Below are positions 3,965 to 46,946 of a DNA stretch of 56,018 nucleotides, piece by piece (within the stretch, counting starts at the first letter, position 1; every line of letters begins with the position of its first letter). A program made the translations under genes and the position numbers. The stretch spans positions 1-56,018 of IMG/VR virus record IMGVR_UViG_3300046534_000888, one strand, 5' to 3'. The stretch comes from a virus (lineage: Duplodnaviria; Caudoviricetes). Under the pieces are notes generated by a model. The model did no database searches, was not told the DNA's origin, and saw nothing but the letters and a program-made list of their open reading frames with translations.

Positions 3965-4042
3965 TGGAGCATAGAGTCGGATTCGAACCGACGGCTTTTA
4001 CGCTTTGCAGGCGCATACTTTGGGCCACTTAGTTACCTATGC
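3965..4042 (-). tRNA. tRNA-Cys(GCA)
   Basis: GCATAGG/TCTATGC-T-CCA; loop CTGCAAA. Confidence 0.9.
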
Positions 4043-6017: not shown

Positions 6018-6103
6018 TGGCTCCAAGAGTAGGGGTCGAACCTACGTTCCTATTGGAAGACTCTGATTAACAGTCAGGCACATTACCACTCTGTCATCTT
6101 GGA
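6018..6103 (-). tRNA. tRNA-Asn(GUU) with long variable arm
   Basis: TCCAAGA/TCTTGGA-G-CCA; CTGA-CTGTTAA-TCAG; V-arm TTCC-AATA-GGAA. Confidence 0.85.
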
Positions 6104-10292: not shown

Positions 10293-10369
10293 TGGTGGAA
10301 TGCCGCGGATTCGAACCGCGATCAGCCGGAGTAAGAGTCCGGTATAATTGCCATTTATAATAGCATTCC
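10293..10369 (-). tRNA. tRNA-Lys(CUU)
   Basis: CCGGA-CTCTTAC-TCCGG. Confidence 0.9.
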
Positions 10370-10374
10370 ATATT

Positions 10375-10457
10375 TGGTAGGCAAGGAGGGAGTCGAACCC
10401 TCAAAGGTCTGGATTTTAAGTCCAGTAGCTGTACCAATTTACATTAACCACCTGCCC
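10375..10457 (-). tRNA. tRNA-Leu(UAA), short variable arm
   Basis: CTGGA-CTTAAAA-TCCAG. Confidence 0.85.
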
Positions 10458-10463
10458 ATAATT

Positions 10464-10546
10464 TGGTACGTCGAGAGGGATTCGAACCCTCAAAGGTCTA
10501 GTGTCTAAAACTAGTAGCTGTGCCAATTTACATTAACCACCGACGC
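10464..10546 (-). tRNA. tRNA-Leu(UAG), short variable arm
   Basis: CTAGT-TTTAGAC-ACTAG. Confidence 0.85.
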
Positions 10547-10570
10547 TTAATCTTTTATGTCAACATTTTA

Positions 10571-10837
10571 TTAAAATTGTTTACTGGCCTGTCGGATAAT
10601 CCGAACAAATGTTTCCAGTAAATCTGTATCATTCAATAATTCGAAATGTATACGCTGCGCTTCACTTAAATGTATTGCTGTTGCCTGATGTTGCTTACGC
10701 TCTTTGTTACTGCAAAGCAGTTTAATACCAGTATCGTCAATGTAATAATTCTGCCATTGCATGGTTTCTTTAGAAAAGAGCCCCAGTAATTTTATTTCAT
10801 ACAGGATTTTGTCGTACATTATATCACGCATGTTCAT
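10571..10837 (-). CDS. hypothetical protein
   Basis: Start moved to MNMRD (AAGGA RBS); longer start overlaps tRNA-Glu. Confidence 0.7.
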   Translation of the reverse strand: MNMRDIMYDKILYEIKLLGLFSKETMQWQNYYIDDTGIKLLCSNKERKQHQATAIHLSEAQRIHFELLNDTDLLETFVRIIRQASKQF

Positions 10838-10863
10838 AATCTTGTTCCTTAATTGCATAAACT

Positions 10864-10937
10864 TGGTACACCATAGGGGAGTCGAACCCCTCTTCACGGA
10901 TTGAAAACCCGTTGTCCTACCGATAGACGAATGGTGC
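10864..10937 (-). tRNA. tRNA-Glu(UUC)
   Basis: ACGGG-TTTTCAA-TCCGT. Confidence 0.9.
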
Positions 10938-10944
10938 ATAAACT

Positions 10945-11020
10945 TGGTGGGCCCACGGAGATTCGAACTCCGATAACCGGATTAAAAGTCCGGGATAATT
11001 GCCCTTTATATTATAGGCCC
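10945..11020 (-). tRNA. tRNA-Lys(UUU)
   Basis: CCGGA-CTTTTAA-TCCGG. Confidence 0.9.
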
Positions 11021-11025
11021 ATATT

Positions 11026-11116
11026 TGGTGCAGCGCCTGGGGTTCGAACCCAGAGTGGGAGTTTCCTCTCGCCGGATTAAAAGTCCGGTACCTTCAGCCA
11101 ATTCGGTCAACGCTAC
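11026..11116 (-). tRNA. tRNA-Lys(UUU) with long variable arm
   Basis: CCGGA-CTTTTAA-TCCGG plus V-arm GAGAG-GAAA-CTCCC. Confidence 0.85.
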
Positions 11117-11122
11117 GTTGTT

Positions 11123-11197
11123 TGGTGTCTCTGAAGGGAATTGAACCCTCTACTCTTGGGTGAAAGCCAAGCGATCTAACCGGTAATCCACAGAGAC
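11123..11197 (-). tRNA. tRNA-Glu(UUC)
   Basis: CTTGG-CTTTCAC-CCAAG. Confidence 0.9.
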
Positions 11198-11216
11198 ATA
11201 TTCTTTAAATTTATTT

Positions 11217-11292
11217 TGGGGTGCAGCTTGGGTTTCGAACCCAACCCTCATGAGTCACAGTCATGCATGCTTCCAGTTACACCTGCCGCACC
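11217..11292 (-). tRNA. tRNA-His(GUG)
   Basis: G-1/C73; CATGA-CTGTGAC-TCATG. Confidence 0.9.
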
Positions 11293-11317
11293 CCAAAATA
11301 AACTTTTCTTCTCCCAT

Positions 11318-11350
11318 AAAAAAACCCGCATTAGGAGAATAATGCGGGTT
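11318..11350 (-). terminator. intrinsic terminator of attenuator 1
   Basis: AACCCGCATTA-TTCTCC-TAATGCGGGTT followed by U-tract. Confidence 0.92.
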
Positions 11351-11377
11351 AAATAAGCTTCTTATTGTCAGTTATTA

Positions 11378-11455
11378 TTAGCTGAAGCTTACCATTCCCG
11401 CGCATGATTTCTCATGCTTCTCGAGTTGTTCTAGTTTTAGTAATAATGTTTTCAT
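11378..11455 (-). CDS. putative attenuator leader peptide 1 (25 aa, Leu/Lys/Glu/His-rich)
   Basis: MKTLLLKLEQLEKHEKSCAGMVSFS, triple TAA; 5 nt after TATAAATA (11461-11468); GCGGG antiterminator strand. Confidence 0.8.
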   Translation of the reverse strand: MKTLLLKLEQLEKHEKSCAGMVSFS

Positions 11456-11460
11456 GTGTT

Positions 11461-11522
11461 TATTTATACAAGTTAATTGTTTAATGTGTAACTATTATAA
11501 CATAGTTTCGTGTGTTTGTCAA
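11461..11522 (-). promoter_or_regulatory. tandem early (TTGACA-17-TATAAT) and late (TATAAATA) promoters of the tRNA cluster
   Basis: attataacatagtttcgtgtgtttgtcaa and tatttata on + strand. Confidence 0.85.
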
Positions 11523-11855: not shown

Positions 11856-12053
11856 TCATGTATCGATGGGCTTGTCAACCTTTAATTTAGGGTTTTTCGA
11901 ATTAAATCCTGCTCGCCACCCTTCCATGAAGATCTTGTAATCAATCGACCTTTGCTTGCTTTCCTTTGTCTCATGCCATCCACGCCAAAGTGTGGTCGTG
12001 TATGATCGACAAGGCGGTGGTGGTGGTGGGTTAGGTATCGTCACGCTTATCAA
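11856..12053 (-). CDS. hypothetical Pro-rich protein
   Basis: ORF track; abuts neighbours. Confidence 0.55.
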   Translation of the reverse strand: MISVTIPNPPPPPPCRSYTTTLWRGWHETKESKQRSIDYKIFMEGWRAGFNSKNPKLKVDKPIDT

Positions 12054-36415: not shown

Positions 36416-36639
36416 TAGTATTTTCCTAGGATAGGGCACGAGAGTTCGGCCAGTTCGATCTTCAATTGGATGATTTCATGCATTTTGGTTTGTTCGACGC
36501 GAAGGCCGCCAATTTCGACACTCATTGTCTGTAGTTCCTGATTCTGTTCATAATATCCATACCCGAAAAGGGCTGATAATATAACAAACACCACCATTGG
36601 CTTCTTGACTAACAATTCTATTATGTCTTTATATTCCAT
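36415..36639 (-). CDS. late membrane protein
   Basis: After TATAAATA (36662-36669); hydrophobic segment plus coiled coil. Confidence 0.75.
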   Translation of the reverse strand: MEYKDIIELLVKKPMVVFVILSALFGYGYYEQNQELQTMSVEIGGLRVEQTKMHEIIQLKIELAELSCPILGKY

Positions 36640-36672
36640 AGATAACTCGAGGTTGTTCTATTATTTATAATA

Positions 36673-36985
36673 AGGTCACCTTGGGTAATAAGGCGTGACC
36701 AACCTCAGATGGAGCCTAAGCCGCCATCATGTAAACGTTGTCATTTGCGTTTATATTTTTCTTATCTTTTAACGTGAATAACCACGCATTGTCAGTTTAT
36801 CTTCGGGACGATATCGATTCCAAGTCATCCCCATCAAAAACACTTTTATCATCTATCCCCGATGACTTCAGCCCAAAGACATAACGTTGTGTCTATATTG
36901 GGTTAGCTCGACAGCAAGAGTGCTTATGGTGGAGATGGCGGGATTCGAACCCGCGTCTACCGACCTATTTTCTACTTCATACAAT
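36673..36985 (-). ncRNA. ssrA: circularly permuted (two-piece) tmRNA
   Basis: Acceptor piece GCGGG-TTCGAAT-CCCGC-CATCTCC-A-CCA (ends 36927) precedes coding piece starting GGGGATG (36832); G3-U70; tag ANDNVYMMAA* at 36716-36748. Confidence 0.92.
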
Positions 36986-36994
36986 GATTTAAAA

Positions 36995-37195
36995 CTATTT
37001 CTCTTGATTTAAAACCATTTCTTTGATGTCACACGAACCACGAACCCAAGGAATACCTTTGGTTCTGAGACCTTCCATTGTGTATTCAGGGTTATGGCCT
37101 CGTTCAGGGTTACGGCCTCGATATTCAGTCTCACCGACCATGATCTTATGACCATTTTTAAAACTTCTTTCTTTCTGATTCATCTGATTCATCAC
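36995..37195 (-). CDS. hypothetical protein
   Basis: ORF track. Confidence 0.65.
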   Translation of the reverse strand: MMNQMNQKERSFKNGHKIMVGETEYRGRNPERGHNPEYTMEGLRTKGIPWVRGSCDIKEMVLNQEK

Positions 37196-46494: not shown

Positions 46495-46514
46495 AAAGCT
46501 ATTTATAAAACGAG

Positions 46515-46946
46515 TTACTTCAAGATTAAGGTTGGGAATTCACCCGCCACCACTTTCTTGGTGAGACCCTTGATGACTCCAGCCATCTTCTTGTCTTTCA
46601 TCAACAAGATATATTTCGCATCTTCGGGGTGCAGGTTTTCAATGAAGCGTATGAACTTCCCTTCACGCATTACAGGTGCGAGCTTGGTGCCATTATTACC
46701 CAAAACGAAAATTGCGAGTTGAGGTGACACCTTATCCAAGGGAGTTGGATTTCCCAACTCTTTATCTTCAAGATCGAATGGCGTGTATGGAACATCACCC
46801 TTGGGCAAATTCCACTGAATGCTGTCATCAAATGAACCTTTGAGGAAATCTCGTAAACCAATCGAATTGTGCTTTCGCAACACCTTTGCCTTCTCTACAG
46901 CACTTGGTGTAGATGCAACTTCTGCTAATACTTCATGTAAATACAT
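46515..46946 (-). CDS. conserved T4-like hypothetical protein
   Basis: FD..I.W.LP.G..PY...RE..FI...E.LHP.DA. Confidence 0.85.
   Translation of the reverse strand: MYLHEVLAEVASTPSAVEKAKVLRKHNSIGLRDFLKGSFDDSIQWNLPKGDVPYTPFDLEDKELGNPTPLDKVSPQLAIFVLGNNGTKLAPVMREGKFIRFIENLHPEDAKYILLMKDKKMAGVIKGLTKKVVAGEFPTLILK

Follow-up and report, generated by a model that had tools for sequence, protein, structure and literature searches.

The stretch of DNA analyzed here (the window) is IMG/VR record IMGVR_UViG_3300046534_000888, a 56-kb fragment (56,018 nt; estimated completeness, 28%) of an uncultured T4-like phage of marine origin. Its topoisomerase II large subunit shares ~52% identity with its counterparts in the Vibrio phage nt-1 group. 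Nearly all of its genes lie on the minus strand, as do all of the features described below, and this strand carries 24 perfect TTGACA-N17/18-TATAAT promoters and ten T4-type late-promoter motifs (TATAAATA). ARAGORN found 24 tRNA genes and one transfer-messenger RNA (tmRNA) gene in the window. We describe a short leader region upstream of eight of these tRNA genes, which is a candidate ribosome-mediated transcription attenuator.

The eight tRNA genes form a block at positions 10293 to 11291, in the order (ARAGORN) tRNA-His(GUG), Glu(UUC), Lys(UUU; 91 nt), Lys(UUU), Glu(UUC), Leu(UAG), Leu(UAA), and Lys(CUU), with an 88-codon open reading frame (ORF; 10837 to 10571) between the second Glu(UUC) and the Leu(UAG) genes. 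The tRNA identities are exactly His, Glu, Lys, and Leu, and the anticodons UAA, UAG, UUU, CUU, UUC, and GUG named in a preliminary description of this DNA were all recovered. That description had also seen no intact promoter inside the block, and this holds: there is no perfect promoter in the block on the coding strand, the sole promoter-like match reaching 9/12 and lying within the tRNA genes. Since the block has no promoter of its own, its eight tRNAs depend on transcription that passes an intrinsic terminator just upstream; tRNA-His starts at 11291, 26 nt past the T-tract of that terminator.

The remaining parts of the leader noted in the preliminary description are likewise present. An early, sigma-70-type promoter (TTGACA-17-TATAAT with a TG extension; 11494 to 11522) matches the consensus at 12/12 positions, and the late-promoter motif TATAAATA (11461 to 11468) lies 5 nt before the ATG of a short ORF, without a Shine-Dalgarno sequence, so that a leaderless late mRNA is expected. 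The ORF (11378 to 11455; 25 codons plus stop; MKTLLLKLEQLEKHEKSCAGMVSFS) opens with ATG AAA ACA TTA TTA CTA AAA CTA GAA CAA CTC GAG AAG CAT GAG AAA and ends in TAA TAA TAA (11380 to 11372), the last two stops being in frame with the first. It has its own start and stop, and it stands between the promoters and the tRNA genes, with the terminator after it. Codons 2 to 16 (11408 to 11452), referred to below as the sensor segment, include 13 Leu, Lys, Glu, or His codons among 15. Two elements within the ORF had escaped the earlier description: hairpin A (GCAUGA-GAAA-UCAUGC, codons 13 to 18, 11402 to 11417; six pairs) and a weak pairing of CUCG (codons 11 and 12, 11422 to 11425; region 1, a possible anti-antiterminator) with CGGG, both of which bring the design nearer to the trp type. 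GCGGG (11397 to 11401), the 5′ strand of the antiterminator (region 2), pairs with CCCGC (11344 to 11348; region 3), which also belongs to the 5′ arm of the terminator. These two strands flank hairpin B (GGUAAGCUUC/GAAGCUUAUU, 11352 to 11393; given earlier as TAAGCTTC/GAAGCTTA), whose 10 pairs stack under the antiterminator helix and whose 22-nt loop contains the stop codons. The terminator itself (11318 to 11350; AACCCGCATTA/TAATGCGGGTT in the earlier description) is a G+C-rich stem-loop directly before a U-tract, AACCCGCAUUA-UUCUCC-UAAUGCGGGUU followed by U7, with an 11-bp stem that includes five G-C pairs, a 6-nt loop, and a hairpin energy of −15.8 kcal/mol. Promoter and terminator are ~170 nt apart, and ~65 nt separate the stop codon from the end of the U-tract.

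Leader codons and a divergent variant

Relatives of the window were gathered by way of the 126-amino-acid (aa) gene two genes upstream of the leader, which yielded 80 loci, and the leader region was compared by blastn with all 83 loci then gathered except L001. Only two of these, L004 and L005, match the leader region (76.2% over 332 nt), and their sequences do not differ. L005 belongs to G001, a complete genome of 198,785 bp that has terminal repeats. It keeps both promoters, the TATAAATA-N5-ATG arrangement, the ORF, GCGGG, the terminator base, the U-tract, and tRNA-His; in its early promoter, both hexamers are kept and the spacer has diverged. L006, a relative that is 84% identical by the 126-aa protein, has a different layout without the leader. 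Searches by way of the neighboring 95-aa and 88-aa genes gave nothing useful (two loci, both without tRNAs), and blastn in distant mode of the leader and tRNA-His against GenBank phages gave no match. Exact and degenerate pattern scans of IMG/VR for further variants returned only the two contigs of the L005 variant, a metagenome scan added nothing beyond a TARA scaffold with 99.9% identity to the window, and contigs of four other DNA sequencing runs contained identical fragments only. No RNA sequencing run was listed as containing this stretch. A generic terminator pattern matched at least 120 unrelated stretches and was discarded.

The comparison of the window with L005 points to constraint on the RNA of the leader. 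The L005 ORF has 24 codons (MKTLILKLEQLLKHEKLCSGDALS) and stops at the start of the hairpin B loop. The first 16 residues of the leader peptide are conserved between the variants, and the C-terminal third loses the frame: owing to a 1-nt indel immediately ahead of GCGGG, this motif stands in another frame in L005, while its sequence and its distance from hairpin B are unchanged and the hairpins are kept. Conservation of GCGGG despite the frame shift thus points to constraint at the RNA level rather than at the peptide level. Of the 10 pairs of hairpin B, 5 differ at both positions and 1 at a single position, with one cell unpaired; of the 6 pairs of hairpin A, 2 differ at both positions and 1 at a single position, and all are still paired. 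Altogether, 7/21 pairs are doubly changed and 97.6% of cells are paired, versus 0 to 2 doubly changed pairs in slid controls. CUCU:GGGG replaces CUCG:CGGG in L005. The lower seven terminator pairs are invariant, and for these, covariation neither supports nor contradicts the structure.

Leu, Lys, Glu, and His together account for 24.9% of the 10,310 codons in the 51 long ORFs of the window. The leader is enriched in codons for these amino acids, which are those of the downstream tRNAs: 13/24 codons after Met belong to the set (P = 0.002), all 13 of them within codons 2 to 16 and none in codons 17 to 25. By this measure the leader ranks 1 of 301 small ORFs in the window, and none of the 9,647 15-residue segments in the 51 long ORFs contains 13 such residues. 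The corresponding 45-nt segment is A rich; nevertheless, 0/20,000 mono- or dinucleotide shuffles of it reached 13 (means, 4.5 and 5.3), and its other two frames scored 2 and 3 and contained stops. A bias that is specific to one frame argues that this frame is read. By a hand count, ~3 of 4,845 possible four-amino-acid sets cover the top four residues of the leader. The L005 leader shows the same enrichment (14/23; P = 2.7e-4), and the leader codons of the two phages vary in parallel with their tRNA sets. In the window there are a Lys-CUU tRNA and one leader AAG, with neither a Leu-CAA tRNA nor TTG; G001 has a Leu-CAA tRNA and two TTG codons, with neither AAG nor Lys-CUU among the 16 tRNAs in the 20 kb examined. 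The joint chance of this, from a post hoc hand estimate based on codon frequencies, is ~0.02.

Competing RNA folds and ribosome position

The 178-nt region folds with an energy of −40.3 kcal/mol (z = −4.1), and 0/200 shuffles fold as well. Hairpin B is present in nearly the whole ensemble (P, ~0.9 to 1.0); together with the GCGGG/CCCGC helix it amounts to −18.0 kcal/mol, and together with the terminator it amounts to −23.2 kcal/mol. The antiterminator and the terminator are mutually exclusive and competitive, with a gap to the terminator state of 0.8 to 3 kcal/mol. For the whole early transcript, the best antiterminator fold (−36.9 kcal/mol) and the best terminator fold (−36.1 kcal/mol) each make up about half of the ensemble. 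For positions 11318 to 11460, for which the preliminary description had proposed such a competition, the unmasked optimum contains the terminator (−35.0 kcal/mol), and the best antiterminator fold (−33.6 kcal/mol) comes within 1.3 to 1.4 kcal/mol of the terminator state. Masking codons 17 to 25 of this segment left the terminator alone, and masking codons 4 to 13 gave −29.4 versus −28.1 kcal/mol. Two further pairings, one between the 5′ leader of the early transcript and the 3′ arm of the terminator (a possible route to early read-through) and one between the terminator loop and GAGAAG, were rejected as not conserved in L005.

The competition is most one-sided in the nascent RNA, by which we mean RNA ending just before the 3′ arm of the terminator, the state met by the polymerase. 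In this state CCCGC is paired upstream with a P of 0.997 in the window and 0.990 in L005, and in ribosome-free RNA the antiterminator forms with a P of ~1.0. As a control, we shuffled the upstream part while preserving dinucleotides (300 shuffles per variant). The mean pairing of CCCGC fell to 0.12 and 0.14, respectively, and the observed value was reached by 1/300 shuffles in each variant. Terminator formation in the window brings a net gain of −3.0 kcal/mol, versus −12.5 ± 2.0 kcal/mol in shuffles (0/300 as small), and in L005 the gain is −1.7 versus −9.6 kcal/mol. A direct-path estimate of the barrier from antiterminator to terminator is 7.9 kcal/mol in the window and 8.5 kcal/mol in L005. 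Because of the z score of −4.1, the matching of the competitor by only 1/300 shuffles, and the first rank in Leu/Lys/Glu/His content among 301 small ORFs, we consider the region to be more than a chance arrangement. Hairpin A covaries and CUCG:CGGG appears in the minimum-energy folds of the terminator state, yet the antiterminator wins in ribosome-free nascent RNA; these two elements could act as a pause or 1:2 element.

To represent a ribosome, we masked a 28-nt footprint around each A-site codon in turn. In the window, the nascent antiterminator formed with a P of 0.94 to 1.00 when the A site was at codons 2 to 14, except at codons 10 to 12 (P, 0.26 to 0.82), and with a P of 0.00 at codons 15 to 25. 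In L005, the P was at least 0.99 at codons 2 to 15 and 0.00 from codon 16 to the last sense codon. These footprints thus allow the antiterminator up to codon 14 or 15 and abolish it from codon 15 or 16 onward. With the complete stem and the A site at the stop codon, the terminator formed in the window with a P of 1.00. At equilibrium with the U-tract included, L005 gave an antiterminator P of 0.60 to 0.78 at codons 7 to 14 and a terminator P of at least 0.96 at codons 16 to 25. The preliminary description held that stalling on sensor codons frees GCGGG and that full translation lets the terminator form, and the sliding mask bears this out in simulation: the switch occurs at codon 15/16, where the sensor-like codons end. 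The enriched segment therefore ends where the ribosome starts to block the antiterminator, a coincidence that is predicted by an attenuator model and that nothing else obviously explains.

Putative translation starts at late promoters and other features of the window

By the T4 late-promoter rule, the late transcript would start at the A of the leader ATG, 5 nt after TATAAATA. The same arrangement, TATAAATA-N5-ATG without a Shine-Dalgarno sequence, is found at 4 of the 10 TATAAATA motifs on the minus strand of the window (12820 to 12805, 11468 to 11453, 9817 to 9802, and 46507 to 46492), compared with an ATG frequency of 0.026 per position, and two of the four sites open ORFs of 126 and 184 codons. 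In divergent contigs, homologues of the 126-aa gene are preceded by the same N5 spacing. A motif scan of the relatives found the arrangement in L004 to L007, L032, L038, and L041 just before position 4001 (3335 in L007) and in L209 at 2098 to 2081; among 84 motifs in 76 loci, 15 ATGs stand at offset 5 and 0 to 7 at every other offset. An identical 16-mer, TATAAATAAACATATG, begins the gp25 baseplate gene in G001 (PF04965; E = 2e-13); this second site of the 16-mer in G001 had been considered as a second attenuator and was rejected as being the gp25 start. The leaderless late mRNA suggested in the preliminary description is therefore plausible, given the same arrangement before real genes including gp25. 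By this pattern, leaderless late mRNAs seem to be common in the marine T4-like clade to which the window belongs, and leaderless late translation looks like a normal route there, one that the leader ORF would use. A limited literature search showed no paper that combines the term “leaderless” with T4 late promoters. The pattern bears on gene calling and on late-gene translation.

Other start sites in the window have related layouts. At 46507 to 46447, directly after a gene ending at 46515, TATAAATA-N5-ATG opens a 15-codon ORF, which may represent a second mini-ORF carried by a leaderless late transcript. At 11878 to 11841, the ATG of the 95-codon gene lies 6 nt past the −10 hexamer of a perfect early promoter, and the early mRNA of this gene may also be leaderless. 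The early promoters are part of a longer repeated cassette, ATAGTTGTTGACA ... GTGATATAATACATGTATAA, often followed by ATTAATTGAGAAG and ATG (24 minus-strand sites; e.g., 7774 to 7746 and 15690 to 15662), and the early promoter before the leader is without the downstream part of this cassette. At ~8331 to 8128, a similar promoter context (ACTTGTATAAATAAAC) with no ATG at +5 stands before an ORF of 35 codons; a strong terminator (AAACCCCG...CGGGGTTT with a T run), a new early promoter, and tRNA-Ile come next, in that order. This may be a decayed or different version of the leader layout.

Two tRNAs with long variable arms and class-II-like bodies, at 11026 to 11116 (91 nt; UUU, Lys) and 6018 to 6103 (86 nt; GUU, Asn), each adjoin a normal-sized tRNA with the same anticodon. 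The 91-nt tRNA-Lys has its whole anticodon stem-loop in common with the neighboring tRNA-Lys, has A at the discriminator position, and is missing from G001. These long-arm tRNAs could be chimeric tRNAs, mischarging tRNAs, or decoys. The tmRNA (36625 to 37019) is of the permuted, two-piece type (Rfam tmRNA_permuted, 106 bits; alpha_tmRNA, 55.5 bits), encodes the tag ANDNVYMMAA, and contains a TATAAATA motif at 36669; it hints at an alphaproteobacterial host. Two tRNA-like genes, at 2114 to 2189 and 2627 to 2692, were found by Rfam and not by ARAGORN, one with a CAU anticodon loop and the other with a shortened anticodon arm.

Interpretation and comparison with known systems

Judging from the sequence and its predicted folds, we think on balance that the leader is probably a ribosome-mediated attenuator of phage tRNA genes that reports the decoding of its own codons. 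Its parts, their conservation, the covariation of hairpins A and B, the competition between folds, and the dependence on ribosome position are computed features of the leader; translation of the ORF, stalling of ribosomes at sensor codons, and a response of termination to such stalling are inferred. Transcripts would start at the early promoter or, as leaderless mRNAs beginning at the AUG, at the late promoter. As the polymerase advanced, hairpin B would form and GCGGG would pair with CCCGC, and the resulting long, interrupted hairpin would hold the 5′ arm of the terminator and permit read-through into tRNA-His and the seven further tRNAs. If the leader were translated quickly, the ribosome would, from codon 15/16 until it reached the stop in the loop of hairpin B, cover GCGGG together with the 5′ arm of that hairpin; the antiterminator would be blocked, the 11-bp terminator would fold, and transcription would stop 26 nt before tRNA-His. 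Slow decoding of Leu, Lys, Glu, or His codons would keep the ribosome in the permissive zone. Because codons 2 to 16 are almost all codons for the four amino acids of the downstream tRNAs, slow decoding would raise the supply of exactly those tRNAs, and the outcome would be negative feedback on decoding capacity. A more specific proposal, which we put forward only tentatively, is that the phage uses the leaderless leader to gauge the decoding of its own A/U-ending Leu, Lys, Glu, and His codons and makes replacement tRNAs on demand. Such demand might arise in hosts whose tRNA pool contains few of these decoders or whose anticodon nucleases destroy them.

A number of observations weigh against attenuation by a translating ribosome. 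In the absence of a ribosome the antiterminator forms, so that, unlike trp, the leader has no clear default of termination. With the full stem at equilibrium, the terminator is favored in the window at most ribosome positions (P, 0.41 to 0.99), and the equilibrium terminator P at codons 2 to 14 is 0.32 to 0.93 on the early transcript and 0.94 to 0.99 on the late transcript. Since the terminator wins at equilibrium in the window, the switch must be kinetic; the barrier of ~8 kcal/mol is only moderate, and any read-through would therefore depend on kinetic trapping and would probably be incomplete. Codon 14, for His, falls at the edge of the permissive zone, and on the early transcript no Shine-Dalgarno sequence precedes the ORF. 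All of the GCGGG/CCCGC pairs (5/5) are invariant, so that covariation says nothing about this helix, and the collections searched hold just two distinct variants, which makes conservation and covariation a single pairwise comparison. Several “synonymous” differences between the two leaders are at the same time compensatory changes in hairpin A and hence no independent sign of coding selection. The match between leader codons and downstream tRNAs that the preliminary description reported holds for the amino acids (13/15 codons) but not for exact cognate synonymous codons, which are not preferred overall (9/13 versus ~66% expected from codon frequencies; hand count, not significant); among the Leu codons, 4/5 are TTA or CTA versus 33% expected, which at a P of ~0.05 (hand calculation) is a hint only. 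In addition, Leu, Lys, and Glu would also be expected in an amphipathic helical micropeptide. Finally, a Karamvirus discussed below has a tRNA cluster without such a leader, so the design is not general.

Three other explanations were considered. The leader might be an ordinary micro-gene for a 25-residue amphipathic micropeptide, or a stable RNA of ~140 to 170 nt, with the tRNAs made by constitutive leakage through the terminator that is tuned by the alternative pairing. A promoter and a terminator ~170 nt apart have such a layout, and the K/E/L-rich, helix-like peptide, the conservation of its first 16 residues, and the antiterminator helix without covariation are all compatible with it. We doubt this explanation nonetheless: a competitor for the terminator arm as good as the one present arises in only 1/300 shuffles per variant, the C-terminal third of the peptide is out of frame in L005 while GCGGG and the hairpins are kept, the promoter-less block requires that the terminator be passed for eight tRNAs, and the agreement between amino acids and tRNAs (that of ~3 in 4,845 sets) would be coincidence.

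Improbable in our estimation is a switch that is coupled to translation without being codon specific and that senses transcript class or overall ribosome availability. Early transcripts, with a 32-nt 5′ leader and no Shine-Dalgarno sequence, would be poorly translated and read through, giving tRNAs early, whereas leaderless late transcripts would be well translated and would mostly terminate; the Leu, Lys, Glu, and His codons would be incidental or would serve the peptide. Such a switch would account for the feeding of one leader by two promoter classes, both conserved, for the missing Shine-Dalgarno sequence before the ATG, for the antiterminator P of ~1.0 without a ribosome, and for an equilibrium terminator P in the window of 0.33 on the early versus 0.95 on the late transcript. 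That last difference is, however, not conserved (0.92 early and 0.82 late in L005), and the 13/15 codons of the permissive zone that specify the amino acids of the block, like the tracking of the tRNA set by the leader codons, would be left unexplained. The two-state RNA, which is well supported, might also be set by a factor acting in trans, for example an RNA-binding protein of phage or host, a small ligand, or (as in a T-box) uncharged tRNA; hairpin A has a conserved GAAA loop, and the large A-rich loop of hairpin B could be a binding site. We consider control in trans highly improbable, as it explains neither the frame-specific codon bias nor the conserved ATG with its late-gene-like start context. 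In an Rfam search of 261 nt, which returned seven matches at an E of up to 10, no family reached its gathering score (the best were anti-hemB, at 21.6 bits versus a threshold of 49.5, and Trp_leader, RF00513, at 19.9 bits versus 41), and no T-box or riboswitch family was among the matches. Membership in a T-box, riboswitch, or known small-RNA family was rejected on these grounds.

If the tentative proposal of replacement tRNAs made on demand holds, no earlier attenuator is known to act on tRNA genes, and this would be the first case in which demand drives the supply of phage tRNAs. The tRNA genes of phages are commonly seen as constitutive cargo that offsets codon usage or tRNA-cleaving defenses; an attenuator here would mean that the supply of phage tRNAs is under feedback from translation. 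It would extend the leader-peptide mechanism from amino acid operons to tRNA genes and to a lytic virus, and it would provide a compact sensor, of ~140 nt, of codon-specific decoding speed. A limited search of open-access papers and preprints showed no description of leader-peptide attenuation of phage tRNA genes.

Among the Rfam matches, Trp_leader is the only amino acid leader family at an E of up to 10. Its weak, full-length alignment (11316 to 11400; model positions 1 to 100) has an E of 0.08 in the 261-nt search, and the phage leader is not a member; the terminator hairpin and U-tract probably account for the resemblance. T-box riboswitches also make a terminator/antiterminator decision that reports tRNA status, but the phage leader, of ~140 to 170 nt, contains an ORF, and sensing would go by way of the ribosome and not by direct tRNA binding. 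Enterobacter phage fGh-Ecl01 (Karamvirus) likewise has many tRNA genes clustered on the early-gene strand among small ORFs; its protein genes, however, extend to within 6 nt of the first tRNA, with no leader ORF or terminator annotated and no room for them. The closest parallels are the leader-peptide attenuators of enterobacterial amino acid operons (trp, his, leu, thr, ilvGMEDA, and pheA) and of pheST. These have in common with the phage leader a short ORF rich in regulatory codons, a terminator before the regulated genes, an antiterminator that excludes the terminator through a common strand, a stop codon positioned such that the antiterminator is blocked by a ribosome terminating there, and a terminator that is more stable than the antiterminator, hence kinetic control. 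The distance from the stop codon to the end of the U-tract in trp is similar to that in the phage leader, and ilvGMEDA and thr also sense several amino acids at once. In contrast with these operons, the regulated genes here are tRNA genes rather than genes for biosynthetic enzymes or a synthetase, and the signal would be decoding capacity. The setting is a lytic phage with early and late phage promoters and probably a leaderless mRNA, the leader mixes codons for four amino acids without a run of any single codon, the 1:2 pairing consists of only four weak pairs, and untranslated RNA is predicted to read through, unlike that of trp. The mechanism would thus be known in kind, and its novelty would lie in having tRNA genes as the target, with feedback on decoding itself, in being part of a phage, in its pair of early and late promoters, and in its leaderless start.

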